NCBI GenBank assembly: GCA_965209055.1
Contig: OZ242374.1
Location: 3,712,001 to 3,776,000, forward strand
Reading direction: 5' to 3'
Length of the DNA: 64,000 nt
DNA from: Acidobacteriota bacterium
Lineage (GTDB): Bacteria; Acidobacteriota; UBA6911; RPQK01; JAJDTT01
How positions within the stretch are numbered: the first letter of the stretch is position 1; each line of letters opens with the position of its first letter. The translations under genes were made by a program, and so were the position numbers. Under the pieces are notes generated by a model that saw only the letters and a list, made by a program, of their open reading frames with translations, was not told the origin of the DNA and ran no database searches. Positions 8,318 to 40,115 of the stretch are shown here, in pieces.

Positions 8318-8385
8318 GGCCGCGCGAGGAGGCCGCGAGGAGGCCGCGGTAGGGGACAGTCACCTCTTCTCAGCACCTCCTCTCT
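8318..8385 (+). repeat. GGGGACAG-core site A with stutter repeats
   Basis: GAGGCCGC x3 then AGGGGACAGTCACCTC at 8351-8366. Confidence 0.7.
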
Positions 8386-8394
8386 CGCGCTTCT

Positions 8395-8415
8395 TGTTAT
8401 CATGATCTGATAACA
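8395..8415. promoter_or_regulatory. Candidate operator of the TA pair
   Basis: Perfect inverted repeat TGTTATCA-N5-TGATAACA immediately upstream of the 8423 start. Confidence 0.65.
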
Positions 8416-8422
8416 TCAGTCG

Positions 8423-8785
8423 ATGACGACGCCGGACCGAGACCCCGGACTGGACACGCTGCTCGACCTTCACGGCGAGACGCTGTTTGTGAACGACACG
8501 GGGCATTGGGTGAAGTTCGTTGTAATACGGACCGAAGTAACACCCGAACGACCACACGGCCTCCGCTACTCGTTAACGCTGCACGCGCCGGATGGCGCCA
8601 GATTGGTTGGATTCGACAATGCACATCCGGTTAGGGAGCGGCCAGGCCCGGGCAGGCGTCGACGGACAGAGCGCGACCATCGGCATCGGCTGCGGAAGAT
8701 CCGGTCCTATGCATACAGAGACGCGGCAACTCTCCTGGAGGATTTCTGGAAAGAAGTGGACCAAGTTCTTGGAGAAGGAGGCTAG
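8423..8785 (+). CDS. DUF6516 / TumE-like putative toxin
   Basis: RPHGLRYSLTLH..G.RLVGFDNAH and DHRH...LLEDFW motifs, upstream of an HTH gene. Confidence 0.75.
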   Translation: MTTPDRDPGLDTLLDLHGETLFVNDTGHWVKFVVIRTEVTPERPHGLRYSLTLHAPDGARLVGFDNAHPVRERPGPGRRRRTERDHRHRLRKIRSYAYRDAATLLEDFWKEVDQVLGEGG

Positions 8786-8790
8786 ATTCC

Positions 8791-9159
8791 ATGAAGACAC
8801 TGAAGATCGGGATCGCCGGCTACGACCAGATGAAGGCGCGCACCCTGGCGATTGCTCGCGGCGACCACACGCCCGCGAAGGGTGAGCCGAAGGTGTGGTT
8901 CACCTCGATCGAGAGCTTTGCGAAGTTGCTTTCCGAGCACAACCGGCATCTTCTGGAGTTGATTGCCCGTGAGAAACCGCGTTCGCTCACGGAACTCGCT
9001 GAGATAGCCGGGCGAAGCAAGTCGAACCTTTCTCGGACCCTGAAGATGATGTCTCAATACGGGCTCGTGGAATTGAGACACGGAGAACGTGGGAGGCTGG
9101 TACCTCGGGTGCCATACGACCACGTGAGGCTCGATGTCTCGTTGACTTCCACGCGGTGA
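8791..9159 (+). CDS. HTH putative antitoxin / transcriptional regulator (HVO_A0114-like)
   Basis: WFTSIESFAKLLSEHN, SLTELAEIAGRSKSNLSRTLK HTH; 5 bp after the preceding gene. Confidence 0.8.
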   Translation: MKTLKIGIAGYDQMKARTLAIARGDHTPAKGEPKVWFTSIESFAKLLSEHNRHLLELIAREKPRSLTELAEIAGRSKSNLSRTLKMMSQYGLVELRHGERGRLVPRVPYDHVRLDVSLTSTR

Positions 9160-9172
9160 AGCACGCGCGCGC

Positions 9173-9210
9173 GGAAGGGACAGTCACCTCCATCTAGTGT
9201 CACCTCCGTC
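9173..9210 (+). repeat. GGGACAG-core site B
   Basis: GGAAGGGACAGTCACCTCC followed by a second GTCACCTCC. Confidence 0.7.
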
Positions 9211-9253
9211 TCGCCGCGCGAGTTCCCAAAGCTGCCGCGGCCACCGGTAACGG

Positions 9254-10483
9254 CTAGCTGATGGGTCCGAAATCGGGAACCTTCAGCCAGTCTCCACCCT
9301 TCAGAGCTGATTGGAAGCCGACGATTCCGGGCGCCGTATAGGCCAGGGCCTGATGGACATCGACCGACGGGGGGCGCTGCTCCAGACAGGCCGAGACGAA
9401 CTCATGAATGATGAAGGGATGGGAGCCTCCGTGCCCCTCAACGTTCCGCAGTGACGGCGGCAGCTCTGCCGAGTGGTCCGCCTGCAACAGTTCGGGTTCC
9501 GAATCGGGAAGGGTCACGTAAGCGGAGGGGCGCATGCCCTTCCACCTCTCGAACAACGACATTTCGGTCCCAAAATAGTCCGCTCCTTCACGGCCGGGAG
9601 CTGCACTCCACCAGTGGATGTTGATTCGGGAGGAGTTTCCACCCGAGGTTTTGAAGAAGAAGGTGGTGTTTATGAACGGGTTACCGTACCGGTTCTCCTT
9701 GTAGAACGGGTGGTCCAGCGGCGTTCCGACCGCCGCGACTTCAACCAGGCTCTCGCCGGTCACATAGATGACCGGACCGCTGGCGTGGGTGATATAGAGG
9801 CCTTGGGCGTTGCCATACCGCCAGGTCCGCCTGCCCTCGTGAAAGTACATCCGGTCCAGGTACTCCGGCATCTCCCCCTTCGCCAGGTAGGTGCCGTGGT
9901 CATGGATGTAATCTCCCTGGGTGAAGTAGATTCTCCCGAACTTGCCTTCCTGTCTCAGTCTGCGGGCCGTCATGGTAGCTGGATGAAAGCAACTGGTTTC
10001 GGCCATCATGTAGATCTGACCGGTTTTTTTGACGGCCTCCAGAAGCTGCTGGCACTGTTCCAGGCTGATGGCGGCCGGAACCGCACAGATGACATGCCGG
10101 CCGGACTCCATGACCTCCACGCAGTGGGGAACGTGACGGGGCGCCCCGGTGAAGATGGCAACGGCATCCACTGTGGGGTCCTTGAGCAGGGCGCGGAAGT
10201 CGGCATGGGCATTGGAGCACGCGAACCGCTCTTCCAGCCTTTTTCGGCGGTCCTCCCTGAGATCGGCGACCGCGGTCACCTTGCAGTTGGGATGCCGATG
10301 CCAGGGAAACGCGGCGCCGAATCCGCCGCCCACCACACCGATCCGCAACTGCTTGCCGGCATCGATCGGCCTGTATCGTTGTCCGAATAGCGAAGCCGTC
10401 AATGCAGTCGTACCGGCTGCCTTCGCACTTTGAAAAAACACTCGGCGGCTGATGGACGGGGATTCCGCCTCATATCTCACCAT
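9254..10483 (-). CDS. Gfo/Idh/MocA-family oxidoreductase, Tat-like N-terminus
   Basis: IGVVGGGFG, HVICAVPAA, YMMAETS, GHGGSHPFIIHEF; SRRVFF motif; start taken at ATG 10483. Confidence 0.88.
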   Translation of the reverse strand: MVRYEAESPSISRRVFFQSAKAAGTTALTASLFGQRYRPIDAGKQLRIGVVGGGFGAAFPWHRHPNCKVTAVADLREDRRKRLEERFACSNAHADFRALLKDPTVDAVAIFTGAPRHVPHCVEVMESGRHVICAVPAAISLEQCQQLLEAVKKTGQIYMMAETSCFHPATMTARRLRQEGKFGRIYFTQGDYIHDHGTYLAKGEMPEYLDRMYFHEGRRTWRYGNAQGLYITHASGPVIYVTGESLVEVAAVGTPLDHPFYKENRYGNPFINTTFFFKTSGGNSSRINIHWWSAAPGREGADYFGTEMSLFERWKGMRPSAYVTLPDSEPELLQADHSAELPPSLRNVEGHGGSHPFIIHEFVSACLEQRPPSVDVHQALAYTAPGIVGFQSALKGGDWLKVPDFGPIS

Positions 10484-10593
10484 GATGGCCGTCCTTTCCG
10501 GGGGTTGGGTATCGGGTGGATCGTAGAGGACACTGAATCGGGCGGTCAAGGCGGGGTGAATCCGGTTTGAATGGGTTAAAGACACTTGGCGGT

Positions 10594-10635
10594 GTGGAGA
10601 TGGGGACAGGTGGAGAAGGGGACAGGCGCCTCCCC
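10594..10635 (+). repeat. GGGGACAG-core site C (16-bp tandem)
   Basis: GTGGAGATGGGGACAG then GTGGAGAAGGGGACAG, followed by GCGCCTCC. Confidence 0.7.
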
Positions 10636-10661
10636 GGAGTCGGTTACCTCCCCGCCGGTGT

Positions 10662-11819
10662 CTAACCGCTCGCTACAGACTCCAGGAACTCCCGGGCGAT
10701 TTCCTCGTAACGGTGCGGGTCCATGTTCCAGGTCCTCCCGTGGGTGGCGCCGGGGACCTTCACGCACCGGACCAGATCCGGGCGGGACCGGGCGAGCAGT
10801 CGGCTGGTTCGGAGTGGAACGAGGGTGTCCGCGTCTCCATGGAAAACCAACGTGGGAGCATGCAGGTGTCCCGTGTCGCGGAGGTAGTTCAACTTCCTCC
10901 ACGGAATCCCGAAACGCGCTCGAGCCAGGGTCTTCGCCGGGTGGTAGAAGATTCCGGGATACCCTTGGTTGCGGGCGGCGAATTTCAAGGTGGCTTCCAG
11001 GTCCAGGACCGGCGAGTCCAGAATGACTCCACGGACGGATCGTGCCAAATCAGATTGCCGCAGGAAGCTCATGACCACGCACCCGCCCATGCTGTAACCG
11101 GCCAGGATTAGCTTTTCGGCCCCGGACTCCAAGGCATGGCGGGCGGCTCCTTCCAGATCCTCCCACTCCGTGAGTCCGTACCAGTGGAGACCGTCCGGGG
11201 CGGGCTCGGCCTCCGGATCGTTTCGATACGAGATGACCAGGCCGGGAAATCCCAGGTCCGCCGCCACCTTCAGCAGGGGGTAGGAACGGAGAGCGCCGCT
11301 GGGCGGCGCGGCCCGCTTTCCGTGGACGAAGATGACCCAGGTGGAGCGGGAACCGGGGACCAACCAGGCGGGGAATCGGCCGAGTGGAGAGTGGAATTGC
11401 AGCGGTTGGACCGGAAACCCGAACGCATCGCCCGGGTCGTCGGGAAAGGCGAAACCGGTGAGCCTCACGCGGGTGCCGGGCGCCAGATCTCCATGCAGAA
11501 GACGGAGGCGTCGAGTGACCTGCCGATTCCTCAGATTCAGGATCCTTCCGGCTTGGGCGTAACCTCCCGGCCAACGCAGACCCCAGAGGCCCTCCTGACG
11601 CCAGCGGCGGCTCCGGCCTGTCTCCGGCAGGACTCCCAAAGTCACGCGATCCGACTCGACCTCCAACACCTCGAGGGGGCGCGCGCCGCCCCGGGCCGCC
11701 GGCTCCAGGACCCGGCGGCGGATCCGGTTGGAAAGGTGCCATGCTCCGGCCAGCCAGACCGCGGCCAGGATGACTCCAATGACGGCCGGCCACGCCGCGT
11801 CGGTCAGTGGGGTGTCCAT
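10662..11819 (-). CDS. Membrane-anchored alpha/beta hydrolase
   Basis: N-terminal TM helix, IFVHG, GYSMGG nucleophile, HGDAD..VP, GATH; start at MDTPLT. Confidence 0.85.
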   Translation of the reverse strand: MDTPLTDAAWPAVIGVILAAVWLAGAWHLSNRIRRRVLEPAARGGARPLEVLEVESDRVTLGVLPETGRSRRWRQEGLWGLRWPGGYAQAGRILNLRNRQVTRRLRLLHGDLAPGTRVRLTGFAFPDDPGDAFGFPVQPLQFHSPLGRFPAWLVPGSRSTWVIFVHGKRAAPPSGALRSYPLLKVAADLGFPGLVISYRNDPEAEPAPDGLHWYGLTEWEDLEGAARHALESGAEKLILAGYSMGGCVVMSFLRQSDLARSVRGVILDSPVLDLEATLKFAARNQGYPGIFYHPAKTLARARFGIPWRKLNYLRDTGHLHAPTLVFHGDADTLVPLRTSRLLARSRPDLVRCVKVPGATHGRTWNMDPHRYEEIAREFLESVASG

Positions 11820-11872
11820 CCGTTTCGATGGGTCGGAAGGGGGCCGGGAACTGCGTCCCGCGTCACCGGGCG

Positions 11873-12334: not shown

Positions 12335-12433
12335 TGTATACCACGGGTTCACGAACTGCTCTCCCACCTGTGTCCAACACCATCGCCGACTTGCGCCCGC
12401 CGGCCGGTTCCGCCATCTTGGCGGCTGACGACC

Positions 12434-13387: not shown

Positions 13388-13424
13388 TGCCGGATCTGTC
13401 CTTCCGCACTGCGGAGACGACACC

Positions 13425-14528: not shown

Positions 14529-14610
14529 ACGAGGTTGCCGCCACCGCTGGCCGGCGGTCTCCACATCATCCCGGTGTCCACGAGGAATGTGGGCAGGGAC
14601 CGGCCCACCC

Positions 14611-18448: not shown

Positions 18449-18462
18449 GGTCAAATTCTCGA

Positions 18463-18766: not shown

Positions 18767-18867
18767 GAGAGGAGGGAGAGGAGGTGACTGTCCCCTTTTC
18801 CAGAGGAGGTGACTGTCCCCTTTTCCCAGTCCCCTTTTCCCAATCCCCTTTTCCCAATCGGTCCCCT
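18767..18867 (-). repeat. GGGGACAG-core site D with tandem and decaying repeats
   Basis: 25-bp AGAGGAGGTGACTGTCCCCTTTTCC x2 (18777-18826), then two 14-bp CA(G/A)TCCCCTTTTCC partial copies. Confidence 0.85.
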
Positions 18868-30767: not shown

Positions 30768-30821
30768 CGGACTGATGGGAAGACGCGATCCGGCGGCCTC
30801 GCCTCGTGTTTGGAGGCTCGC

Positions 30822-31202
30822 CTATTTGGCGCCCGACCCCTCCCGCTTGGCCGGCTTCATCGCGGACACTTTGATGTCGTCCTCGGAGAACTCCCCCGTC
30901 ACCTCGGCCCGGAAGTTCTCCCTGACCTTGGCGGCTTCCAGCAGTTTCAGGGCCTGCTCGTCTCCCGCCGGGTCGAACTTGAGGAACCGCCCTTCCAGGA
31001 TCAGGCCGAAGCCGCTGGCCTTGCAACTCTCCATCAAGGCGCAGGCCACCGTGTGTTTGGCTGTCTTCTCGGCGTTGGCCGCAACCCGGGCGCCGCAGGC
31101 CGCGTCCATGACCACTCCGGTCTTGGTCTCCGGACCGGCGAGGACCAGCATCGAGCCGGCCGCGATGAGGCAGGAAAAACGGATCAGGTGCGCTCGCTTC
31201 AT
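30822..31202 (-). CDS. Small secreted Cys/His-motif hypothetical protein
   Basis: Signal-peptide-like N-terminus; MDAAC...HTVACALMESC..SGFG; host-like codon usage. Confidence 0.65.
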   Translation of the reverse strand: MKRAHLIRFSCLIAAGSMLVLAGPETKTGVVMDAACGARVAANAEKTAKHTVACALMESCKASGFGLILEGRFLKFDPAGDEQALKLLEAAKVRENFRAEVTGEFSEDDIKVSAMKPAKREGSGAK

Positions 31203-31346
31203 ATTGGATCCCTCATGACATCGTTGGGTGTTGCTGCCTGTCCGGATATTGAAACATAGCCGCCACGGCTCTGCACGATGGTTGCCCGCCCGGGCCCGTC
31301 GCTTCATGATAGGGGCCGATTTCGGGGATGAGCCAATGAGGAAACC

Positions 31347-32882
31347 ATGTTGAGAATGCGAATTCACACTATCTTGATCGGGGGATGGATCGTTCTTTCC
31401 TTGTTCTCAGGGAACGGAGCCGCCCAGAGTCCGGGAAGCCTGGTGCTCACACCGGGAGTCCGCCACCTCTTCCTGGACGACTACCTCCTGGGGAATCTCT
31501 ACCGGGTTCGGCGCGTCATTCACCAGCCGTACCGGTACGAGGGAAGTCCCGTGGTCCGGGCGGACCAGCCCTGGGAGATCCGGCCGGGCCGATACGCCGC
31601 TCCCGGGACGACTCCGGTGGAGAGCCGGGCAATCCAGGTCACCAGCGTCCCGTCCTGGGACCCTGGCGAGAAGGTCTGGAAAATGTGGTACCACGGAGGT
31701 CCGGGAAAAACCGCGTTCGCACGCTCTCGGGAGGGCATCGTCTGGGAAAAGCCGGCGTTGGGTGTTAAGGAGTTCCGGGGCTCCCGGGAGAACAATCTGG
31801 TGGCGGTTCGGGGAGAGCCGGACGCCCTCGTCCAGCATGTCATCCTGGATCCGCAAGGGACCGGCGATCGCAGATACAAGGGGCTGCTGGGACCGAGGGA
31901 CCGCCGGCCCGTCGTCTCCGCCGACGGCTACGTGTTCACCAAGCTGGACGTGCCTCCCATTCCGAGCCAGGACACGTCCCAACTGACCTACGACGAACTG
32001 GGCAAACAATACATTCTGACCGTCAAGCATCGGGGTCCTTTCGGCCGGTCGATCTACCTCGCGCTGAGCCGGGATTTCGAGCAATGGACCGATCCCCAGC
32101 TCATTTTCCATGCCGATACCCTGGATCAGAAGCTGGGCGTAGAACGCATCCGGGAACACTTGGTCGACCCCCGGCTCTACACCCCCGAGTTCCATCAGCC
32201 GGAGAATTACAACGTCGAGATCTACAAGATGCCCATCTTCCCCTACGAGGGCGTCTACATCGGCCTGCCCAACTATTTCGAGTCCAGCGGGCTCACTCCT
32301 CCCCACCACAATAACCAGGACGGCGTCAATTCGGCCAAGCTGGCCACCAGCCGCGACCTGCTCAACTGGGTACCGGTGGGCACCCGCGAGTCTTTTCTGC
32401 CGGTCTCCAGGCTGGGTGAGGGACGGATCGACACGGCCCAGGTCCTGCCGGTGTCTCGGCCCATCATCAAGGGGGACGAGATCTGGTTCTATTACAGCGG
32501 GGTGGACGTCCGGTACCCGGCCAACGGCGCCTTTCAGGCCGCCATCCACCTGGCCCGTCTCCGCCGCGACGGTTTCGTCTCGTTCTGGGCCGACGAAAAG
32601 GGAGGGTTCGTCGAGACCCGAGCCCTGCGTTTCGGCGGGACCCGGCTCTGGCTCAATGCGGACGCCTCCGGGGGCGAAATCCGGGTGGAAGTCAGAAATC
32701 CCAAGGGCCGCAAGGCTCTGGACGGTTGGAGCCGCGATGCTTCGAAGCCGCTGACCACAGACCAGTTGAAGGTGCGGATGGAGTGGGAGGGGAAAGGCAG
32801 TCTGGAGTCCCTCAGCGGGCAGAGGATCCGCTTCCGAATCCATCTCAAGAACGCCCACCTCTATTCCTTTTGGTTTGAGTAA
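31347..32882 (+). CDS. Secreted beta-propeller glycoside-hydrolase-like protein
   Basis: HLFLDD, WKMWY, repeated SxDxxxW boxes, IWFYYSG, LRRDGFVS, C-terminal beta-sandwich. Confidence 0.7.
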   Translation: MLRMRIHTILIGGWIVLSLFSGNGAAQSPGSLVLTPGVRHLFLDDYLLGNLYRVRRVIHQPYRYEGSPVVRADQPWEIRPGRYAAPGTTPVESRAIQVTSVPSWDPGEKVWKMWYHGGPGKTAFARSREGIVWEKPALGVKEFRGSRENNLVAVRGEPDALVQHVILDPQGTGDRRYKGLLGPRDRRPVVSADGYVFTKLDVPPIPSQDTSQLTYDELGKQYILTVKHRGPFGRSIYLALSRDFEQWTDPQLIFHADTLDQKLGVERIREHLVDPRLYTPEFHQPENYNVEIYKMPIFPYEGVYIGLPNYFESSGLTPPHHNNQDGVNSAKLATSRDLLNWVPVGTRESFLPVSRLGEGRIDTAQVLPVSRPIIKGDEIWFYYSGVDVRYPANGAFQAAIHLARLRRDGFVSFWADEKGGFVETRALRFGGTRLWLNADASGGEIRVEVRNPKGRKALDGWSRDASKPLTTDQLKVRMEWEGKGSLESLSGQRIRFRIHLKNAHLYSFWFE

Positions 32883-32897
32883 GGAAGGTTCCGGGAG

Positions 32898-34166
32898 ATG
32901 ACTCCTGAGGATCGCGCCGTCGACGCGGTGGACGCCCTGGGTGAGGAGTACCTGCGGTTTCTGGCGGACTTGGTCCGATGCCCCACGCTGCTGGGGCAGG
33001 AGGCGGAATGCCAGGAATTGATCTGCCGGCGGCTCGTCGACCTGGGTCTGGAGACCCGGAAATGGGAACCGGACCCCGATTTGTTGGAGTCGCACCCCGA
33101 TTTCGTACCCGTGGAGCGTGATTATGCTGGCCGGCCCAATGTGGCCGGCGTTCTTGTTCCCACGGGAAGCGGCGGGCGGAGCCTGGTCCTGAACGGGCAC
33201 GTGGACGTGGTGCCGCTCGGACCCCTCCACTGGTGGAGCGTCGATCCCTGGGGAGCGGAGGTTCGGGACGGCCGGATGTACGGCCGCGGCGCCCTGGACA
33301 TGAAGAGCGGGCTGGTGGCGGCCCTGCTGGCGGTGGCGGCGGTCCGGGAGTCGGGCGCCCGGCTGCGGGGACCGGTCCGGGTCGAGAGCGTCATTGAGGA
33401 GGAGTGCACGGGCAACGGAATGCTGGCGAGCCGACTGGATTCGGGGCCGGTCGACGGCGCCGTCCTGACCGAGCCCACGGGGCTTCAGGTCTGGATCGCG
33501 ACACTGGGCGTGCTCTGGTTCGAGGTCTGTGTACGGGGTCGGCCGGCTTACGTGGGCGATCCGGGACGCCAGGTGAATGCGGTCGAGAAGGCGGCGTCCC
33601 TGATCCACCGGCTCAAGCCGGCAGTCGTCGAAGCATTGAATCGGGACTTCCGGCATCCGTCCTATGGTCACCGTCCCCGGCCCCTAAGCCTCAACGTCGG
33701 ACGGATCGAGGGCGGGGACTGGCCTTCCAACGTGGCTCTCGAATGCCGGTTCAACTGCCGCATGTCGTTTCCCATCCACTGGCCGCCGGAGCGGGCCCAG
33801 GAATTCGCCGAGGATCAGGTCCGCCGTGCGGCAGCGACCGATCCCTGGCTGGTTCGGAACCCGCCCCGGATCCGCTATAACGGGTTTCGAGCCCGAGGCT
33901 GGGTCGCGCCTGAAATAGCCGGGCGTGACAGTCTGGTCGACTTGTTGGAGGAGTGTCACCGGGGCGTCACCGGCAGGGAACTGGATTGGGATGGCTTTCC
34001 CGGCACTGCCGACGCCCGTTACTTCAAGGCCGCGTTGGGGGAGCAGTCCATCTACTATGGACCGAAGGGAGGAAACCTCCATGCGCCCGACGAGTACGTA
34101 GAACTGGAGTCGGTCCTGGAGGCCGCCCGCGTGCTATCGCGGCTGGTGATCAGGTGGTGTGGTTGA
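32898..34166 (+). CDS. ArgE/DapE-family M20 deacylase
   Basis: LNGHVDVVP, GRGALDMKSG, EEECTGNG, TEPT, H.PDEYV. Confidence 0.92.
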   Translation: MTPEDRAVDAVDALGEEYLRFLADLVRCPTLLGQEAECQELICRRLVDLGLETRKWEPDPDLLESHPDFVPVERDYAGRPNVAGVLVPTGSGGRSLVLNGHVDVVPLGPLHWWSVDPWGAEVRDGRMYGRGALDMKSGLVAALLAVAAVRESGARLRGPVRVESVIEEECTGNGMLASRLDSGPVDGAVLTEPTGLQVWIATLGVLWFEVCVRGRPAYVGDPGRQVNAVEKAASLIHRLKPAVVEALNRDFRHPSYGHRPRPLSLNVGRIEGGDWPSNVALECRFNCRMSFPIHWPPERAQEFAEDQVRRAAATDPWLVRNPPRIRYNGFRARGWVAPEIAGRDSLVDLLEECHRGVTGRELDWDGFPGTADARYFKAALGEQSIYYGPKGGNLHAPDEYVELESVLEAARVLSRLVIRWCG

Positions 34167-34167
34167 A

Positions 34168-34920
34168 ATGGAAGCCAATAACGAAAGCGTGGTGTTGATC
34201 ACCGGGGCCAGCCGCGGGATCGGGGTCGGATTGGCGGAAGGGTTCGCGGTCCCGGGAGCCCGCTTGGCGCTGACGGCCCGCCGGCGGACGTCGCTTCAGG
34301 AGACCTGCCACAGGGTCGAGGCTCTCGGAGCTCACGCTCTACCCCTGGCGTTGGACATGCGGCGGCTGGAGGGCATGCCGGCTGTGGTCGACCAGGTGGA
34401 GGAAGAGCTGGGTCCGATCCGGGTGCTGGTCAACAATGCCGGAGTCAACATCCCCCGTCCGGCCGAGCAGGTCACCGAGGAGCAGTGGGACGAAATTCTG
34501 GACGCCAACCTCAAGGGGGCCTTCTTTCTCTCGCAGGAGGTGGGACGCCGGATGATCCCCCGGAGACGGGGAACCATCGTCAACGTGGCTTCGGCGGCCG
34601 GGCTGGTGGCCCGCGAGGAAAGAGCGGCATACGGCTCCAGCAAGGCGGGGATGATCATGTTGACCCGGGTGCTGGCTCTGGAATGGGCCCGGCACGGCAT
34701 CACCGTCAACGCCGTCGCACCCACCTTCGTGGAAACCGACCTGGCGGCGCAGACTCTGGATCGTCCCGGCATGCGCGAGAAGATCCTGGGACAGATTCCG
34801 CTACGGCGGCTGGCGACGGTGGAAGATGTCGCCGCTTCGGTGCTCTTCCTGGCGTCACCACAGGCGAGCTTCCTGACGGGGGTGGTCATCCCCGTGGATG
34901 GTGGCGCGACGTTACGTTGA
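34168..34920 (+). CDS. SDR-family oxidoreductase
   Basis: TGASRGIG, NNAG, YGSSK, VNAVAPTF, VDGG. Confidence 0.92.
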   Translation: MEANNESVVLITGASRGIGVGLAEGFAVPGARLALTARRRTSLQETCHRVEALGAHALPLALDMRRLEGMPAVVDQVEEELGPIRVLVNNAGVNIPRPAEQVTEEQWDEILDANLKGAFFLSQEVGRRMIPRRRGTIVNVASAAGLVAREERAAYGSSKAGMIMLTRVLALEWARHGITVNAVAPTFVETDLAAQTLDRPGMREKILGQIPLRRLATVEDVAASVLFLASPQASFLTGVVIPVDGGATLR

Positions 34921-36023
34921 AGAGGGGTCGTAGGAGCGGGGGTTTTTAACCCCCGATTCCGGAGTGGCGCTGAAGAGGGGGACAGGAATGTCCCCCCTCC
35001 GGAGAGGCCCGAGATGATGGTGTCCACGTGCATGGTGAATTCCAGGGCGTTGTGGATCAGGCGGCCTCGAGTGGAAGGGCCGTCGGTGGGGGGCCAGTAG
35101 CCGTCCCGGTGCTGCTGTCGGACGAACCAGTCGCCCATGCGGTAGGTCCAGGCCTCATAACGGGGATCTCCGGTGACGAGGTAGAGCAAGGAACTGCCCC
35201 AGCCGCTCTTGCAGACCGGGTCGTAGTTGAACTGCCCGTCAGTGGCGGCCATGGAGAAGTCCTGGTAGAGGCGGGCCAATGCCAGGTATTCCGGATCGGG
35301 GTCGGCCAGATAGAGGCGGCACAGGAACCCGGCGGCGATCCCACCCACGGTCCAGCGCTGGAGCCGGGCGACGCGATTCTCCACCACGAACCAGAAGGCT
35401 TGCTCGGGGTGAAACTCGCGGTTGGGCGTTTGGCGGGCGCGGGACCAGTCGTAGTAGAAGCGGTCGGGAAGCTCGTCCTGGGCGTCGTAGATCCGGCGCA
35501 GGAAACTCGCCACCGACCGCGCCGCCGCCAGATTTCCCGTTGCCAGGCAGGCGAAGCCGCCTCCGGCAGTGTAGGGGATACTCTGATCGTCGCTCTTGGA
35601 GCCGTCCTCGCGGCGGTCGTTGGCGAAAGCGCCTGAAGCCGGGTCCTGCCAACGCAGGAGCGCCGGCATGAGACCATGGGAAAGGTCGTATTGACCCGCC
35701 ATCTGTGCGCCGACGATCAGAGCCGAGTCCCGGTAGGCCCACGCGTCGTTGATCTTTCGGCAGGGTCCGCCGATGCGGCCGTCCGGTTGGAGCATGTGCT
35801 TTCGGATCCAACCGCACAGGCGGCTCGCCGCCTCCGTCTCCCCCACCAGGCTGAAGGTCCAGGGGCCGCGGTAGAAGAAGTACCCTTCGCTCGCGTCGCC
35901 GATGGACCCGTCGGGATTCGTCTGATCCAGCAGCCACTCGGTCGCTCGCGCACGGACCTGCCGATAGAGCGCCAGGCGTTCTCCCCTTTCCGCCGCCGTC
36001 AACTCGCTTCCGGTGGACTGCAT
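34332..36023 (-). CDS. Hypothetical helical-barrel protein (prenyltransferase/squalene-oxidase-like repeats). Genuine coding part ~35003-36023; no stop until 34332.
   Basis: WLLDQTNPDGS, LLRWQDP.SG, WFVRQQHRDGYW repeats; the frame reads through the REP doublet. Confidence 0.65.
   Translation of the reverse strand: MQSTGSELTAAERGERLALYRQVRARATEWLLDQTNPDGSIGDASEGYFFYRGPWTFSLVGETEAASRLCGWIRKHMLQPDGRIGGPCRKINDAWAYRDSALIVGAQMAGQYDLSHGLMPALLRWQDPASGAFANDRREDGSKSDDQSIPYTAGGGFACLATGNLAAARSVASFLRRIYDAQDELPDRFYYDWSRARQTPNREFHPEQAFWFVVENRVARLQRWTVGGIAAGFLCRLYLADPDPEYLALARLYQDFSMAATDGQFNYDPVCKSGWGSSLLYLVTGDPRYEAWTYRMGDWFVRQQHRDGYWPPTDGPSTRGRLIHNALEFTMHVDTIISGLSGGGTFLSPSSAPLRNRGLKTPAPTTPLQRNVAPPSTGMTTPVRKLACGDARKSTEAATSSTVASRRSGICPRIFSRMPGRSRVCAARSVSTKVGATALTVMPCRAHSRASTRVNMIIPALLEPYAALSSRATSPAAEATLTMVPRLRGIIRRPTSCERKKAPLRLASRISSHCSSVTCSAGRGMLTPALLTSTRIGPSSSSTWSTTAGMPSSRRMSNARGRA
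34930..35002. repeat. REP doublet (REPIN-like)
   Basis: GTAGGAG-CGGGGGTT TTT AACCCCCG on + and GGAG-GGGGGACA TTCC TGTCCCCC on -. Confidence 0.8.
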
Positions 36024-36163
36024 TCGGTTGGCGATTCTACCAGCCGGTCCGGTCGACTGCCGGGTCCGCTCGAGCCGCGGGCAGCCGCAACAGGGAAGCA
36101 GAGCAACTCGGCGTCATGGCCGGGGAGTAGTCTTTACCGGGAACGGGGAGTCCGCCGAGACTC

Positions 36164-37813
36164 ATGAACGAAATGACGAAAAGGCTTCTGATCGTAGCGC
36201 CGGTCGCGTTGGTCATCCTCCTGTTCCTGTCGTTGTTGCCCGTGGACCAGAACTACCTGTCTTCCCGGCAGTTGGACGCAACCTGGCTGGCGTTGCTGCC
36301 GCCGCTGGTGGCCATCGTCTCGGTTCTCATCACCCGCTGGCTGGTTCCGTCCCTCATCTTCGGAATCGCCAGCGCCGCCGTGATTCATGCCTGGCCCTCG
36401 CCCGGCGCCATGGCGGAGTCGCTCTTCGTGAATTACTTCTGGGATTCGGTTCTCGATTCGTTCCACCTCTCCATCCTCGGCTTCACGGCGTCGCTGCTGG
36501 CCCTGGTCAGTGTCACCACCGCCAGCGGCGGGATCCAGGGAATGATCAACCTCATCCTGCGGCTGGCCCGGGGACGCCGCGGAGTATCGGTGGCGACGGT
36601 GGGCATGGGCTTCACTATCTTTTTCGACGACTATGCCAATACGGCGATCGTGGGGCCCACGGTCCGGCCCTTGTTCGATCGGCTGAAGCTGTCCCGCGCC
36701 AAGCTGGCATACCTCATCGACTCGACCGCGGCTCCCATCGCCGGTCTCGCGTTGGTCTCGACCTGGATCGGGACCGAGGTCTCCTACCTCCAGGGCGCGG
36801 CCCGGGACCTGGGATTGGACGCCAGTGGATACGGCCTCTTCCTCTCGGCGATGGGGTACCGGTTCTATTGCATCTTCGCCTTGTTCCTGGTGATCGTGGT
36901 GGCGGCCACGGGCCGCGACTTCGGGCCCATGCTGAAGGTGGAGAGAAAGGCGCGCCGGGTGCCCGAGCCCTCCGGCCTTCAGTCCTCGGCGGAGTCACCG
37001 GAGATCGAGCCGCGCTGGTACAACGCCGTGGTGCCCATCGGCACGGTGCTGTTTCTCATCATGATCCAGATCTACTACTGGGGAAGCCAGGGTCCGGGGA
37101 CCGACTTGACCTCCTTGTCGGGATGGAAGGATGTGTTCATCCGGGCCGCCGCGGCCCAGGACGGCGAAGCCCTCACGTTCGCCATGCTCTACGCGGGCGT
37201 CACCGGAGCCGCTCTGGCGATCCTGTTGCCGGCCCTGCAGGGCGTGATGACGGTGCGGGAGGGGCTTCTGGCGTGGGTCGGGGGTGTCCGGCATATTTCG
37301 GGGGCCCTGGTGGTGATCGTCTGCGCCTGGGCTCTTTCGGCCGGATGCCGCGACTTGGAGACGGCCCACTACGCCGTCGCCGTGTTGCGCCAGGGCGTGA
37401 GCGTCGAGTGGGTTCCGCTTGCGGTGTTCGTCACCGCCGGACTGGTCGCCTTCTCCACCGGGACCAGCTACGGGACCATGGCTATTATTATTCCCACCGC
37501 CGCCCAGTTGGGGTATGAATCGGGCGGTGAGGCGGTGATGATCCTGGCCATGGCCGCCGTCCTGGACGGCGCCATCTTCGGCGACCACTGCAGCCCCATC
37601 TCCGACACCACCGTCCTCTCTTCCATCTGCAGCGGGTGCGAACACCTGGAGCATGTGCGCACCCAGATCCCATACGCTCTTCTCGGGGCGGTGGTGGCCG
37701 CCCTGGCCGGCTATGCCCTGGTGGGCGCCTGGGGAGCCGATCTCTGGGTCGGAATGGCCGCGGGCATGACTGGGATCCTCGTCCTGATTCACGTCGCGGG
37801 CCGGCGGGCCTGA
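36164..37813 (+). CDS. Na+/H+ antiporter NhaC-family transporter
   Basis: IFFDDYAN, KLAYLIDSTAAP, FSTGTSYGTM, GAIFGDHCSPISDTT. Confidence 0.92.
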   Translation: MNEMTKRLLIVAPVALVILLFLSLLPVDQNYLSSRQLDATWLALLPPLVAIVSVLITRWLVPSLIFGIASAAVIHAWPSPGAMAESLFVNYFWDSVLDSFHLSILGFTASLLALVSVTTASGGIQGMINLILRLARGRRGVSVATVGMGFTIFFDDYANTAIVGPTVRPLFDRLKLSRAKLAYLIDSTAAPIAGLALVSTWIGTEVSYLQGAARDLGLDASGYGLFLSAMGYRFYCIFALFLVIVVAATGRDFGPMLKVERKARRVPEPSGLQSSAESPEIEPRWYNAVVPIGTVLFLIMIQIYYWGSQGPGTDLTSLSGWKDVFIRAAAAQDGEALTFAMLYAGVTGAALAILLPALQGVMTVREGLLAWVGGVRHISGALVVIVCAWALSAGCRDLETAHYAVAVLRQGVSVEWVPLAVFVTAGLVAFSTGTSYGTMAIIIPTAAQLGYESGGEAVMILAMAAVLDGAIFGDHCSPISDTTVLSSICSGCEHLEHVRTQIPYALLGAVVAALAGYALVGAWGADLWVGMAAGMTGILVLIHVAGRRA

Positions 37814-37891
37814 GTTAATTTGAAGTTTTCGTAGCAGAGTCTGCACAACCTACGATCCGGAAGGAGAGGACTATCATCCCTTTCGTGAATG

Positions 37892-37958
37892 TGGAGTAGT
37901 CTCTGGAAAGGGACAGTCTGGAGTACTCTCTGGAGTAGTCTCTGGAAAGGGACAGTCT
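37892..37958 (+). repeat. GGGACAG-core site E (28-bp duplicate)
   Basis: TGGAGTAGTCTCTGGAAAGGGACAGTCT at 37892 and 37931, with a partial GGAGTACTCTC between them. Confidence 0.85.
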
Positions 37959-38212
37959 CGATTCCCGGCGGGAAGCGAATCTACGGCATTCTCGAGTTCC
38001 GTTTCTTTACGATTGTGGGGGATCAGAGAAAGCTTGTCAGGCACGGCCGCCGGGATTGGACCACCTCGACACTATCCTCGTTCAACCCAGCTTACCCAGG
38101 TCTCCCGAACCGTCAGAAAATAAGGGAGAGTCCAGGGTCTATTCGGTGGATCCTGTGATCCGGATGGTTCGGTGCCGCAGTGGCCCAATCGGCGGCCGGC
38201 GATCAGACAAGT

Positions 38213-39148
38213 CTACGGGACCAACGCGTGCGAGCGCTGCTCCCGCAGGGAAAACAGCACTCCGCCCAGTTGGGGGATTGGGTGTCGGCGACGTCGATAC
38301 CGGCCTTGCTGCCGATACGCCTCCAGCAACTGCGCCACCTTCTCGGCTGGCCCCACGGCCAAACCGTCCGTCAGGAATCGCAAACGCCGGCGGAACGCTC
38401 CGGCTCGGGCGAATCCACGCCGCTCCTCCTGCTGGAGGATCCACTGCGGGATCGCGGCTTGGTTGTCTTTGGTGGGGACGGCTCCCCGATAGTACAAGCG
38501 AGCCCGGTAACCACCGTACACGTCGGTTCCGGGAACCGACGGAAACAGTTCCTCCAGGGGAATCAGGTCCTCGTCCTTGCCCAACCGTCGCCAGCGGGCC
38601 GAGCCCCACTTCCACTGCTCCGGCCGGTTGGCCAGTCCCGCCCGCACGGCGTTGAGTTCCACGTACAGGACGGCGTCCTGGACGGCTTCCATTCCCAAGA
38701 GTTCCGAGTTCTTGAAACGATCACTCCAAAAATGGCCTCGCCGGCCGAACTGGCGGTTGAACCACCGGGCATAGAGTCCGTTGACGTCCGCCATCAGCCT
38801 CGACACGTCGAACAGACGCCGATTGAGAGCCTCCCACTGGACGTCGGTCCAATCGGCGGTCTTCTTCTCGGCCTGCTCGCCATAGAGCTTGTGGGTGCTC
38901 TTTTTCAACTCCTTGCGGGACAACGACCGGGGCTTCTCGAAATGGACGATGAGGTGGTAGTGATTGCCCATGATCTGGAAGGCGGCCAGACGGCAGCGGT
39001 AGGCATTGACGTAAAACACCATCATGTCCAGGAATTTGCGACGGGCCTGGGGGTCTTCCAAGGGGAACCAATCGGGTCGGCCGGCGACTCGATTGGTGAG
39101 GTGATAGAAGGCGGCTTCGGTGCTCTTGTGCCGTGCGGTTCGGGGCAT
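38213..39148 (-). CDS. HUH Y1 tyrosine transposase, REP-associated (RAYT/TnpA-like)
   Basis: MPRTAR...YHLTNR, MGNHYHL (HUH), GHFWSDRFK, YVELNAVRAGL (catalytic Tyr), WKWGS; no tnpB nearby. Confidence 0.9.
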   Translation of the reverse strand: MPRTARHKSTEAAFYHLTNRVAGRPDWFPLEDPQARRKFLDMMVFYVNAYRCRLAAFQIMGNHYHLIVHFEKPRSLSRKELKKSTHKLYGEQAEKKTADWTDVQWEALNRRLFDVSRLMADVNGLYARWFNRQFGRRGHFWSDRFKNSELLGMEAVQDAVLYVELNAVRAGLANRPEQWKWGSARWRRLGKDEDLIPLEELFPSVPGTDVYGGYRARLYYRGAVPTKDNQAAIPQWILQQEERRGFARAGAFRRRLRFLTDGLAVGPAEKVAQLLEAYRQQGRYRRRRHPIPQLGGVLFSLREQRSHALVP

Positions 39149-39246
39149 GGCGGTGGTCCTAGGTCGTCCGAACTCGGAATCGGCGGAGATCGGTTCGTGC
39201 CTCTGATAACAAGAACGACTCAGAACCGGGAAAGGCGAAGGAAACT

Positions 39247-39386
39247 CAAGAAAATCAGCATACGGAGATACAGACAGCATACGGAGATACAGACTGTCCC
39301 CTTCCAGCAAGAAAATCAGCATACGGAGATACAGACCGGAGATACAGACTGTCCCCTTTCGGAACGGTCCCCTTCCGGAACGGAAT
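39247..39386 (-). repeat. GGGGACAG-core site F with nested duplications
   Basis: CAAGAAAATCAGCATACGGAGATACAGAC x2, GGAGATACAGAC x4, GACTGTCCCCTT x2, partial GTCCCCTTCCGGAACGG. Confidence 0.85.
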
Positions 39387-39524
39387 GCGCCCTTCGTTTA
39401 CTATCTGGGAGGGATTACCCTGGATCCGCACACTGACCGGCGATTCAGGCAGGCGACATTGATTTTGCGATGATGTCAGACATTCGCAATGCGGGGGTCA
39501 ATGAGAAGGAAAGAGAAGGAGCCC

Positions 39525-39962
39525 ATGCTGATCGCAACCGGGGCACTACTCGTTTTGCTGGGGAACCTCGCTTGGGCGACGGGTGAACGCGTCTCCTGCG
39601 GCGGCCAGGCGCCAGGCGCTGAGTGTTGGATGGAGGTGGCCAACCGGCCAGGATGCTACATCTGGAACGGGCACCTCATGCGTAACCAGACGGTGACTTG
39701 GACGGGCGAGTGCGCCGGGAGCTTGGCTCAAGGGGTGGGGACTCTCAAATGGGTCTGGGCGAAGGGAAAGAAAACATCCGAGGAGACTGGGCAGCTCCGG
39801 ACCGGCAGGCAACACGGGCGATGGGTTGTGCGGCTCGCGGATGGCACTGTCGCACAAGGCCCGTTCGTGGAGGGGAAGCGACACGGGCGGTGGGTCGTGC
39901 AGGATGCGAACGGAAACAGACGAGAGATCGCCTTCAAGAAAGGCAAGCGGAGTTCTCGCTAG
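39525..39962 (+). CDS. Small secreted Cys-rich protein with MORN-like repeats
   Basis: AAGGAG RBS, signal peptide, CW.E....GCYIWN, WTGEC, G..HGRWV x2. Confidence 0.75.
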   Translation: MLIATGALLVLLGNLAWATGERVSCGGQAPGAECWMEVANRPGCYIWNGHLMRNQTVTWTGECAGSLAQGVGTLKWVWAKGKKTSEETGQLRTGRQHGRWVVRLADGTVAQGPFVEGKRHGRWVVQDANGNRREIAFKKGKRSSR

Positions 39963-39999
39963 CTCTTCTCTCCCAGCGTAGAGGCGTGCGGAGAAACAT

Positions 40000-40115
40000 G
40001 CAGGGAAACAGACTGTCCCGTTCCGCGCGCGGTCCCCTTCCGCGTTCCTCGCAGAAACAGACCGCAGAAACAGACTGTCCCCTTCCGGAATGGCCGTCCC
40101 CTTCCGGAATGGCCG
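40000..40115 (-). repeat. GGG(G)ACAG-core site G with nested duplications
   Basis: GAAACAGAC x3, ACAGACTGTCCC x2, GTCCCCTTCCGGAATGGCCG x2. Confidence 0.85.

Follow-up and report, generated by a model that had tools for sequence, protein, structure and literature searches.

Classical REP-RAYT systems combine a GT[AG]G-tagged hairpin with a gene that is usually present in one copy and encodes a protein of 150–200 aa. The TnpA proteins of the IS200/IS605 family are short (about 150 aa), carry a Y-x-x-x-Q motif and perform peel-and-paste Y1 transposition. Integron cassette arrays and the rolling-circle gene capture of IS91/ISCR elements and Helitrons are further systems with which accessory-gene arrays can be compared. 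REP-RAYT systems, in the form of REPtrons and REPINs, were reportedly described by Nunvar in 2010, Bertels and Rainey in 2011 and Ton-Hoang in 2012. IS200/IS605 elements are generally described, in part in PMC6006769 and PMC5027513, as having co-oriented subterminal hairpins, as inserting beside a 4–5-nt target that is not duplicated, and as showing a replication strand bias.

Another related group is formed by the TIRtrons and their TIRYT genes (Di Nocera et al. 2013, BMC Genomics 14:522; PMC3733652). According to the text of that paper, the terminal inverted repeats (TIRs) of TIRYT genes share the sequence GGGGWSAS, one group of TIRYTs, from Acidobacteria, is given separate mention, and TIR copies occur elsewhere in the genomes as singles, dimers and clusters. 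In the sections of Quentin et al. (2018, BMC Genomics 19:475; PMC6006769) considered here, TnpA-Y1 subclass 2.1 is equated with the TIRYTs, while subclass 2.3 is characterized by NHYH and YVDLNP motifs, a median length of 325 aa, an insertion of 55 aa that follows the HuH strand and a copy number of 3.9 per genome; it is found mainly in Chromatiales and Alteromonadales, without REP-like flanks.

Here, we analyzed a stretch of 64,000 nt (the window) from genome G000, together with eight other genomes of the genus (G001–G008). The original prediction had considered the system possibly undescribed. The arrangement instead matches that given for TIRtrons in the text of PMC3733652, with a RAYT-like Y1 HUH gene between terminal inverted repeats that are not GTAG hairpins, GGGGWSAS in the form of GGGGACAG, and dispersed TIR copies. 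This kind of system is thus already described, as the TIRtron. The passages of that paper covered here make no mention of core-anchored stutters, direct repeats of 40–260 bp, co-oriented arrays or module edges, and in the TIRtron literature, as far as covered by such text, we found no description of strain-variable stutters, long direct repeats or co-oriented cores with exact module edges. The features of the window are listed in Table 1.

Table 1. Features of the window that carry or adjoin core units (TRF, Tandem Repeats Finder score).
Feature	Position	Strand	Evidence
Core unit, GGGGACAGTC at 8352, 11–13-nt tandem repeat on its left	8316..8369	+	20.1 bits; TRF 8316–8348, score 52
Two-gene toxin-antitoxin (TA) module: TumE-like toxin (8423–8785), HTH protein (8791–9159)	8423..9159	+	Pfam TumE E=1e-9; HVO_A0114/HTH_20 E=4.7e-21
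Core unit, AGGGACAGTC at 9176, then imperfect duplication starting GTCACCTCC	9171..9214	+	17.1 bits
GFO/IDH/MocA-type oxidoreductase module	9254..10585	-	Pfam PF01408 E=2.1e-18
Two 16-nt units GTGGAGA(T/A)GGGGACAG, the second being the scoring core 10618	10594..10635	+	TRF 59; 16.2 bits
Two full core units (18788, 18813) and three partial stutter units (GTCCCCTTTTCC); a small ORF follows downstream	18767..18865	-	TRF 100, 81; cores 31.5 bits each
Left copy of 64-nt direct repeat, the 3' end of gene 36164..37813	37750..37813	+	Alignment
Two terminal-inverted-repeat units on the downstream side of TIRYT (cores 37909, 37948)	37892..37961	+	Matrix-scored
TIRYT, 311-aa RAYT-like Y1 HUH gene	38213..39148	-	Pfam Y1_Tnp E=4.9e-9
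Inverted-repeat units on the upstream side of TIRYT (cores 39294, 39349); nested duplications	39247..39385	-	TRF 78, 52, 59
ORF157, which may be a passenger gene; one set of co-oriented (-) cores on either side	39489..39962	+	ORF
Outer inverted-repeat units (cores 40012, 40075); stutters of 13 and 19 nt	39997..40115	-	TRF 52, 78
Right copy of 64-nt direct repeat	40105..40168	+	Alignment

The core motif and its distribution

All 12 core copies that had been predicted at seven intergenic loci were found, each 1–3 nt from its predicted place. Within the window, GGGGACAG occurs 14 times against 5.06 ± 2.13 expected, a count reached in 0 of 100 shuffles; AGGGACAG alone is not enriched there (4 observed, 2.79 expected, 4 reached in 32 of 100 shuffles). 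The genome-wide count that had been proposed as a check gave 118 copies of GGGGACAGTC against 11–18 expected from order-3 and order-5 Markov models; 69 of these 118 lie in non-coding DNA, taken as the 16% of the genome left over by a crude ORF caller. A 23-nt scoring matrix was derived from the genome-wide copies. Eleven of the 12 named sites match the motif GARAAGGGGAC-A-GTCNCNTTYTC and score 16–31.5 bits, and the twelfth, at 10602, is a truncated stutter copy (-4.6 bits). The remaining seven matches to the 8-mer in the window each score at most 9.6 bits. At a threshold of at least 14 bits the matrix finds 241 matches genome-wide, compared with 8 in reversed or complement-only controls. As in TIRtrons, the sites are dispersed: 198 distinct sites of at least 14 bits are clustered in several regions and also form tandem arrays. 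In total, about 200 copies of the unit besides those bracketing TIRYT are spread through intergenic DNA, most densely in the flexible parts of the genome.

The core was predicted to lack a hairpin, which is correct for the non-palindromic 8-mer, yet the 8-mer sits in the middle of a 23-nt near-palindrome, in which half-sites GARAAGGNGAC surround GAC-A-GTC, so that the statement fails for the whole unit. Both strands reach 14 bits at 43 of the 198 distinct sites. Near-palindromy would fit an explanation in which the sites are passive REP-like elements, serving as protein binding sites or RNA stem-loops and altered by slippage and ordinary short-repeat recombination, with the transposase not acting today. 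We consider this quite unlikely; no base-pair covariation was found between the arms, as would be expected of an RNA or DNA hairpin under selection, and the position and orientation of the sites relative to neighbouring genes are not fixed. A separate GTAG REP family is also present in the genome.

The TIRYT gene and its inverted repeats

The densest core loci do bracket a RAYT-like gene, as predicted, identified by its Pfam Y1_Tnp match; the longest ORF extends to 39322, through the repeats. The protein contains the motifs GNHYH (NHYH, H63/H65) and YVELNA (Y162-x-E-L-N166), and H63, H65, Y162 and N166 are invariant among 26 homologues. The predicted structure (pLDDT 78.8) has a helical insertion at approximately residues 78–134. 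By fold it is closest to 4er8_A, a REP-associated transposase from E. coli (E=1.9e-5), followed by transposases of IS200/IS608/ISDra2; no PDB chains matching TIRYT by sequence were found. By published description, as far as given in PMC6006769, the protein may be a candidate for subclass 2.3, with similar motifs, length, insertion and copy number (six in G000); the taxa reported for that subclass are different, and its members are reported to lack REP-like flanks. Across the genus, 3–12 matches to the family were found per genome.

The locus shares with REP-RAYT systems a Y1 HUH gene between inverted short repeats that are also dispersed intergenically, and a joint spread of repeat and gene. 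It differs from them in its multicopy genes and its 311-aa protein. Assignment to a classical REP-RAYT system (REPtron) was rejected, as the unit consensus (82 sites) begins with GARAAG rather than GT[AG]G, the arms show no covariation and the protein scores 51.9 bits with NCBIfam REP_Tyr_transpos, under the cut-off of 80. The catalytic fold is that of IS200/IS605 transposases, and single-strand nick-and-join chemistry of their kind would underlie the mechanism proposed below. In contrast to IS200/IS605 elements, the unit has inverted ends and lies between long direct repeats, and the cores are not oriented in accordance with the replichores. Membership of that family was rejected on the length of 311 aa with Y-V-E-L-N, the inverted ends and direct repeats at 11 of 15 sites.

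The inverted arms at 37903–37920 and 39290–39307 are 94% complementary. The predicted link between the motif and an HUH Y1 enzyme is strongly supported by the relatives, in which a core lies upstream of TIRYT in sense at 49 of 51 loci, downstream in antisense at 45 of 51, and on both flanks at 45 of 51. Inverted repeats of the form AAGGGGACAG also flank homologues of only 56–57% identity, and GGGGACAG was found beside homologues down to 56% identity. Co-occurrence of motif and gene clade, a further check that had been suggested, was observed as well. In all nine genomes of the genus GGGGACAGTC occurs 62–153 times, compared with 1–7 times for a control pattern, and in G023 the counts are 76 and 4; these ten genomes carry close TIRYT homologues. 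Seven genomes lacking the gene family (E<=1e-10) have 4–21 copies against 2–20 for the control, with no clear excess. The spread of the motif thus goes with the TIRYT gene clade, which speaks against purely passive repeats, as do the intact transposase genes with their invariant catalytic residues. In addition, three transposase-unit copies in G000 are 95–97% identical in DNA, which points to recent copying. On the other side, the majority of the transposase sites are ancient and have been passed on by vertical descent, as in the domesticated RAYTs described in part of PMC5581495.

Stutters and their variation between strains

Tandem duplications, termed stutters, had been predicted at every locus. 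Tandem Repeats Finder identified 42 arrays in the window, and all 10 scoring at least 50 are located at six of the seven core loci; the seventh, at 9176, has only an imperfect 16-nt duplication (13 of 16 matching). Genome-wide, tandem duplications were found at 68 of 198 core sites, compared with 179 of 1900 random intergenic positions. Their boundaries cluster from -4 to +5 around the core centre. A start at GTC is possible for about 7 of 15 right-hand duplication units, and GGGGAC forms the end of 5 of 19 left-hand units. The remaining boundaries are scattered from -7 to +8, and no single bond is common to all. The stutters could reasonably be attributed to nicking and rejoining at the core, as duplications are enriched at cores and have their boundaries near the core centre. 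The same scatter, spread across about 10 nt, could also be obtained by replication slippage at a palindrome and in this respect agrees with passive repeats, as does the last partial unit at 18.8 kb, which adjoins a TACAAT box upstream of the small ORF.

Stutters differ between near-identical strains in independent assemblies. In contigs from other runs, 95–99% identical to the window over 4 kb, all interpretable indels of at least 10 nt fall within the three core loci around TIRYT. At 37892..37961, 39 nt are missing in G008 and run X19, and run X1 carries two extra core-bearing insertions; at 39247..39385, 74 nt are skipped in runs X1 and X3 and 91 nt in X19; at 39997..40115, G008 has one unit and runs X1 and X19 also differ. 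G008 thus lacks some units that G000 carries. Taken together, the assembled contigs of public runs display gain and loss of units and no circle junction.

These comparisons also contradict an origin of the stutters in errors of one long-read assembly, one of the conditions under which the original prediction would have been abandoned. Such short, nested repeats are difficult to assemble, and the window belongs to a metagenome-assembled genome. However, the same loci with different unit numbers are carried by contigs of three other runs from other studies, a separate X15 contig (possibly from the same sample) spans 37000–40782 with no difference, and the same kind of structure occurs in the eight other genomes of the genus. 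An assembly artefact is therefore extremely improbable.

Flanking direct repeats and site occupancy

The TIRtron of the window is flanked by two copies of a 64-nt direct repeat with about 78% aligned identity, and the final stutter unit of the outer inverted repeats takes in the first 9 nt of the right copy. TIRtrons are present at this site in G000, G002, G003, G004 and G008. In G001, G005, G006 and G007 the direct repeat is single-copy, and a 69–91-bp or overlapping junction takes the place of the TIRtron. Direct repeats of at least 40 nt flank 24 of 55 TIRtron loci, which are not independent given the shared ancestry of the relatives (11 of 15 chromosomal sites), compared with 15 of 300 random positions. 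They measure 40–260 bp and mostly end 10–40 nt outside the outermost core. Most TIRtron sites are common across the genus (15 sites for 55 loci), and one at 5.16 Mb is occupied in all eight relatives. Since most sites are genus-wide, presence and absence at the site in the window may be due not to gain but to loss, with the flanking direct repeats recombining.

Gene modules and the hypervariable region

Variable gene modules have edges that coincide with cores. A hypervariable region separates gene 4471..7653 from the block that begins at 10663; it measures 3 kb in G000 and 6–60 kb in relatives. Core 8352 is the left edge of the TA module; homology to the TA module of G002, G003, G006 and G007 begins at this core. 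Core 9176 is the left edge of the oxidoreductase module, of which nine copies were found in eight genomes. Of 71 pairwise homology ends, 70 fall between -19 and +34 nt relative to the centre of the left core, and all copies keep one orientation relative to the core. The left edge of this module is at a core in 9 of 9 copies, whose left neighbours are unrelated; several other module ends lack a core.

The original prediction viewed the cores as an integron-like capture system. In this explanation, the Y1 enzyme would excise any DNA between two co-oriented cores in single-stranded form and paste it at another core, in an integron-like or rolling-circle manner, and the cores would act as recombination sites that build accessory-gene arrays; we find this rather unlikely. 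As in integron arrays, co-oriented sites lie between accessory genes: 47 of 49 cores of the hypervariable region (not independent, owing to shared ancestry) point in one direction across eight genomes, as do 7 of 8 in a second array in G006. Genome-wide, the co-orientation is modest, with 47 same and 28 opposite orientations among neighbours less than 10 kb apart (runs test near 0.04). As in one-ended rolling-circle capture, the site fixes one edge of the module, and the other edge varies. In four copies, no more than 36 nt separate the right end of the oxidoreductase module from the centre of the next core, which favours capture; in G000 the gap is at least 67 nt. A core is missing at 4 of the 9 right ends and likewise at the left border of the variable region. 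In a second island, all four edges of the conserved blocks are within about 60 nt of a core, and paralogous modules within a single array each end close to a core or directly at one. Part of the coincidence is trivial, however, given that cores and block ends alike are intergenic.

Gene order and content bear on the same question. The TA module is present in five of eight relatives of the genus, there after the oxidoreductase and not before it. This reversal, seen in G000 against G002, G003, G006 and G007, would suit movement of cassettes, but can be explained by inter-core deletion in a G007-like ancestor with two oxidoreductase copies. ORF157, with no Pfam match, is enclosed by co-oriented cores within the transposase unit that the direct repeats delimit, as a captured gene would be. 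It is present in the units of G000 and G008 and missing from those of G003, G002 and G004 at the same site, and paralogues of about 70% identity occur elsewhere. The orientation of gene to core is, however, not fixed as in an integron, being flipped between arrays for a 189-aa gene and the ORF157 family. Cores have also been gained without any cargo at the 18.8-kb site, where the orthologous position has no core in G003 and G006, fewer or different units in G001 and G008, and four different units in G004. In G000 no cargo segment has a second core-bounded copy, only the transposase units and an unrelated IS, and the only sizeable "cargo" in G002 is an IS3-family element that is nested there. 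Unlike integrons, IS91 elements and Helitrons, the system includes neither a tyrosine-recombinase integrase nor a Y2 Rep-helicase. The unfixed orientation, cargo-free cores, coreless module ends and lack of duplicated cargo thus weigh against integron-like capture, and any gene-capture role of the repeats is hypothetical.

Proposed mechanism

The association of gene and repeats, the differences in unit number between near-identical strains and the long outer direct repeats are observed directly. The sites are probably repeat units of a TIRtron system, which comprises a multicopy TIRYT gene bracketed by inverted near-palindromes with dispersed copies and would act by the following mechanism. 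TIRYT would bind the 23-nt near-palindrome and nick either strand near its centre (GAC/A/GTC), attaching itself to the 5' end in the manner of HUH enzymes. The 3' end thus released may be extended by 9–60 nt, sometimes by hundreds, before rejoining, and such extension and rejoining would generate tandem duplications starting or ending inside the core. Occasional strand transfer from core to core, or to a new place, may produce core-bounded deletions, duplications and insertions, which would include movement of the gene-plus-repeats unit itself.

Distribution and shape of the repeat

All 12 core sites that the original prediction had placed at seven loci were recovered in the window, offset by 1–3 nt from their predicted positions. 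GGGGACAG occurred 14 times against 5.06 ± 2.13 expected, a number reached by 0 of 100 shuffles, and GGGGACAGTC occurred 118 times in the genome against 11–18 expected from Markov models; the predicted feature is real and non-random. AGGGACAG alone was not enriched in the window (4 against 2.79 expected). Of the 118 GGGGACAGTC sites, 69 are intergenic according to a crude ORF caller, by which 16% of the genome is non-coding. From the flanks of all 186 genome copies of GGGACAGTC a longer consensus emerged, and a 23-nt matrix, GARAAGGGGAC-A-GTCNCNTTYTC, was made from 80 distinct purine-flanked copies. It gives 16–31.5 bits for 11 of the 12 predicted sites, the twelfth (10602) being a cut-down stutter copy (stutters are short tandem or nested duplications at cores), and at most 9.6 bits for the other seven 8-mer matches in the window. 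At a threshold of at least 14 bits, the genome contains 241 matches, compared with eight in reversed or complement-only controls. They represent 198 distinct sites. The ORF caller, which places false ORFs across some repeat arrays, puts 135 of these in intergenic DNA. Clusters of cores are found at 1.70–1.80, 2.0–2.1, 2.75–2.8, 3.1–3.3, 3.7–3.8 and 5.15–5.2 Mb.

The 23-nt motif is a near-palindrome centred on GAC-A-GTC, and both strands score in 43 of the 198 sites; the predicted absence of a hairpin therefore holds for the 8-mer only. No complementary covariation of the left and right arms was found at any register among 80 distinct sites. The idea of a variable stem with a conserved loop was therefore dropped, and a fixed near-palindromic consensus is preferred. 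Elsewhere in the genome, a tandem array of ~20 core units in a single orientation, with periods of 25–38 nt, lies 10 kb from a transposase copy. Runs of 13–20 co-oriented GGGGACAGTC sites, spaced 30–200 nt apart, surround the transposase copy of G023, a 3.4-Mb genome of another family.

Positions of the TIRtron, its surroundings and related elements (G000 is the genome carrying the window, C1 its contig; G002 and G023 are relatives)
Feature	Sequence	Position	Strand	Remarks
TIRYT ORF	window	38213-39148	-	N-terminus MPRTARHKS; longest ORF continues across repeats
Repeat arms	window	37903-37920, 39290-39307		94% complementary
End of upstream gene and its repeat	window	37750-37813, 40105-40168		last 64 nt of gene; ~78% identity
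ORF157	window	39489-39962	+
189-aa gene	window	7690-8259
TA module	window	8423-9159	+	TumE-like toxin gene, then HVO_A0114/HTH_20-type regulator
Oxidoreductase module	window	9199-10557
GTAG-tagged REP pair	window	34930-35010		hairpins GGGGGTTTTTAACCCCC and GGGGGACAGGAATGTCCCCCC
Canonical RAYT	G000	1142805-1143563		252 aa
Tandem core array	G000:C1	1751902-1752496
Transposase copy near array	G000:C1	1741333-1742268
1.3-kb insertion sequence	G000:C1	781341-782654, 3231540-3232853, 3902509-3903823		391-aa ORF, IS4-like DDE transposase
1.9-kb element	G000:C1	2014794-2016707, 1179910-1181819, 3009719-3011627, 5284722-5286628		100% identity
GGGGACAGTC runs	G023:C1	1427842-1489814
Transposase copy in runs	G023	1471015-1471938
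Split flanks of 5.16-Mb site	G002:C1	5091971-5097623, 1617859-1625780
Nested IS3-family element	L031 (G002)	3087-4240		HTH_Tnp_1 ORF and rve ORF

The repeats bracket a TIRYT gene

The 311-aa product of the bracketed RAYT-like gene (TIRYT) matches Pfam Y1_Tnp (E=4.9e-9) and, with 51.9 bits, the NCBIfam model for REP-associated tyrosine transposases, under the curated cut-off of 80. H63 and H65 (NHYH) and Y162-V-E-L-N166 are invariant across 26 homologues with 53–84% identity. The AlphaFold model (pLDDT 78.8) has its best fold match in 4er8_A, the E. coli REP-associated transposase (E=1.9e-5), followed by the IS200, IS608 and ISDra2 transposases; the PDB, searched by sequence with the protein itself and with a profile of 26 sequences, gave no match at E≤0.01, and the one at 0.22 was spurious. 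The family has six copies in G000, three of them with 95–97% DNA identity, and 3–12 matches in each of the eight other genomes of the genus. At E≤1e-10 it is present in 24 of 31 genomes searched, a count that takes in G000 and the unpublished G016, the latter used for this count only. In a wider protein search, 682 of 2400 candidates were relatives at E≤1e-5, named in their sources, where a name is given, ‘REP element-mobilizing transposase RayT’, ‘transposase’ or ‘hypothetical protein’.

The original prediction had tied the core to an HUH Y1 enzyme, and this is the right enzyme. Among 51 loci of relatives, GGGACAGT occurs in sense within 600 nt upstream of the gene at 49 and in antisense within 600 nt downstream at 45, while opposite orientations account for only five upstream and nine downstream sites. 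At homologues with 56–57% identity (in G009 and G017), inverted AAGGGGACAG(A/G/T) repeats lie on both sides of the gene. The motif also co-occurs with the gene clade across genomes, being far more frequent than a control pattern in the genus and near it in genomes without a family match. In the sister genus, the inverted repeats diverge after GGGGACAG at the single locus examined (G009).

Counts of GGGGACAGTC and of a control pattern per genome
Genomes	GGGGACAGTC	Control pattern
Genus of the window, 9 genomes	62-153	1-7
G023 (76% homologue)	76	4
G019	56	9
G022	41	3
Sister genus, 6 genomes	12-26	11-29
7 genomes without family match at E≤1e-10	4-21	2-20

RAYT-like genes with long terminal inverted repeats (TIRs) replacing GTAG REPs were named TIRtrons/TIRYTs by Di Nocera et al. 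(2013; PMC3733652), who describe GGGGWSAS as common to many TIRs, moderately abundant TIR families that occur singly, as dimers or in clusters, and an Acidobacteria group of TIRYTs with sharp limits. GGGGACAG fits this motif, and since the arrangement is published, the system in the window is a member of a described kind, a TIRtron, and not an undescribed one. Quentin et al. (2018; PMC6006769) assign TIRYTs to subclass 2.1; compared by description, our protein resembles subclass 2.3 in its motifs (NHYH and Y-V-[DE]-L-N), in the helical insertion that follows the HuH strand, in size (near 325 aa) and in having several copies in a genome. In the literature searched, the terms TIRYT and TIRtron were confined to these two papers.

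A classical GTAG-tagged REP pair is also present in the window, and similar 70-nt elements occur at several other places in relatives. A related hairpin, GGGGGACAGTCTTGTCCCCC, was found 17 times in G000, which also encodes a canonical RAYT. Three copies of a 1.3-kb insertion sequence with an IS4-like transposase (99.6–99.9% identity) each lie within a REP hairpin, GGGGGTTAACAACCC.

Stutters at the cores

Tandem Repeats Finder reported 42 arrays in the 64-kb window, and the ten scoring at least 50 all lie at six of the seven core loci; the 9176 locus has an imperfect 16-nt duplication only. A tandem duplication (period 8–60, at most 120 nt away) accompanies 68 of the 198 core sites, compared with 179 of 1900 random intergenic positions. 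Genome-wide, many duplicated units have a boundary inside the core. GTC is a possible start for about 7 of the 15 right-hand duplications, and GGGGAC is the end of 5 of the 19 left-hand ones; the remaining boundaries range from −7 to +8 relative to the central A. Cleavage of both strands at one bond, N^GTC, fits the window loci but was rejected on these genome-wide fractions; the candidate bond is only the commonest boundary position.

That the stutters are an assembly artefact is highly improbable. A separate contig from the public sequencing run X15, possibly of the same sample, is identical over 37000–40782. Contigs from runs of other studies (X1, X3 and X19; 95–99% alike) show whole-unit differences at 37891–37956, 39262–39367 and 40062–40091, and only single-base changes and 1–2-nt indels outside these stretches. 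Two joints in this comparison (‘skips 109/150’, sides of 22–27 nt) had unreadable content and were not counted as evidence. No circular junction appeared in these contigs, a kind of data that does not prove absence. G008, the closest genome, is without 39 nt at 37909–37947 and ~75 nt at 40011–40100. At the 18.8-kb locus, the orthologous spacer is coreless in G003 and G006; in G001, G008 and G000 it holds one to two units whose stutters differ, and in G004 four units, again different. These comparisons show that the stutters exist and are unstable. That they are passive repeats changing by slippage is in our view unlikely. At ~18697, ~1.2 kb of coding sequence carried by G008, G001 and G004 is missing from G000; the junction lies ~80–100 nt from the cores, and this deletion is therefore not core-bounded.

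Possible mobility of the TIRtron and flanking direct repeats

The flanks of the TIRtron (30000–37814 and 40105–46000) are collinear in all eight relatives. The unit is also present at this site in G002, G003, G004 and G008 (with a contig break in the last), and is replaced by a coreless junction in G001, G005, G006 and G007, seen as overlapping alignments in G001 and a 69–91-bp gap in the other three. In G000 the end of the upstream gene is repeated directly after the outermost repeat unit. Around the TIRtron of G002, ~105 nt are duplicated likewise, and in G004 this gene end recurs as a duplicate of 245 nt, with both copies on one side of the gene and a core between them. In a survey of 55 TIRtron units and their 2-kb flanks, the left and right flanks of 24 share a direct repeat of 40–264 nt, compared with 15 of 300 random positions, and the inner ends mostly lie 10–40 nt beyond the outermost core. 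These loci reduce to 15 chromosomal sites, 11 of which have a direct repeat; most copies are therefore vertically inherited. Presence and absence at the window's site may reflect gain, or loss via recombination between the flanking repeats. For the TIRtron at 5.16 Mb, occupied in all eight relatives, no unoccupied site was found. The flanks of this site lie 3.5 Mb apart in G002, with a transposase copy beside each, which looks like a rearrangement between transposase copies.

Gene modules bounded by cores

The proposed capture of gene cassettes is unproven and contradicted in part. Several observations fit it. The variable region between the gene at 4471..7653 and the block starting at 10663 measures 3 kb in G000 and 6–60 kb in relatives, and its gene content differs even in G008. 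Across eight genomes (G005 left out), 47 of 49 cores of at least 11 bits in this region are co-oriented. Nine copies of the oxidoreductase module in eight genomes have unrelated left neighbours, and their left homology end falls −19 to +34 nt from the core centre in 70 of 71 pairwise comparisons. The right end lies at most 36 nt from the centre of the next core in four copies, but falls at least 67 nt short of it in G000, and the other four copies have no nearby core. The TA module starts at a core too, and looks like a toxin-antitoxin pair moving between genomes as a single block. Within 4000–46000, cores occupy five of the six intergenic gaps whose content differs between relatives, and none of at least 14 bits occurs in gaps collinear across all of them. 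In a second island (2.003–2.023 Mb), all four conserved-block edges are within ~60 nt of a core. Of the 172 block ends overall, 37 are no more than 30 nt away from a core, compared with 3.2% of random positions, a null that is too easy because block ends and cores are both intergenic. The G000-specific part at 2.003–2.017 Mb contains one of four copies of a 1.9-kb element, presumably an active insertion sequence.

Against this, cores arise without cargo, and the left border of the variable region is usually coreless. In another array of G006, where seven of eight cores are co-oriented, the 189-aa gene and the ORF157 family face the other way with respect to the cores. Over the whole genome, cores show only modest co-orientation (47 same, 28 opposite; runs test near 0.04), and core orientation does not track the replication halves (cumulative GC skew extremes at ~1.44 and 4.32 Mb), so a replication-strand bias was rejected. 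When 90 inter-core segments were compared with the genome by BLAST, second copies were seen only for transposase units, local paralogues and unrelated IS elements, and no duplicate of a cargo segment lies between cores. The seeming cargo of the G002 unit at the window's orthologous site was rejected as such, being an IS3-family element nested between the transposase gene and the downstream inverted repeats. The differing order of the TA and oxidoreductase modules is explicable by deletion between cores. True HUH-driven mobilisation of cassettes via the cores is doubtful. Searches on Y1/HUH enzymes with gene capture or cassettes found only Helitron, IS200/IS605, integron and unrelated works.

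Proposed mechanism and significance

We consider the system to be probably a TIRtron whose enzyme drives local instability. Judging from HUH chemistry, the enzyme would nick either strand close to the middle of the near-palindrome, and the 3' end would be briefly extended and then rejoined, giving core-anchored duplications; core-to-core strand transfer could produce core-bounded deletions, duplications and perhaps insertions. More tentative is the idea that TIRYT is a working single-strand recombinase that duplicates, deletes and moves DNA between co-oriented 23-nt sites as an HUH-driven cassette array, and also inserts its own unit with 40–260-bp target duplications; we think it improbable. 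Such duplications are not reported as a transposition signature of Y1 enzymes in the literature searched. The accessible text of the literature found describes gene-flanking repeats and states no activity for TIRYT/RAYT-like enzymes of this class, and that on TIRtrons makes no mention of long flanking direct repeats. Within the reach of our searches, three observations are new: that stutters are polymorphic, that long repeats flank the TIRtrons, and that modules are bounded by cores.

Nine genomes are available for the genus, six as closed single contigs, with 3–12 gene matches and about 60–150 10-mer cores per genome. Three footprints, namely changes in unit number around GAC-A-GTC, long direct repeats just beyond the inverted repeats, and cores that coincide exactly with module edges where the genome changes fast, predict a cleavage site and supply natural before and after states, which makes the function of the enzyme testable. 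If active, the enzyme would drive local plasticity in the genomes of uncultured Acidobacteriota, which are widespread.
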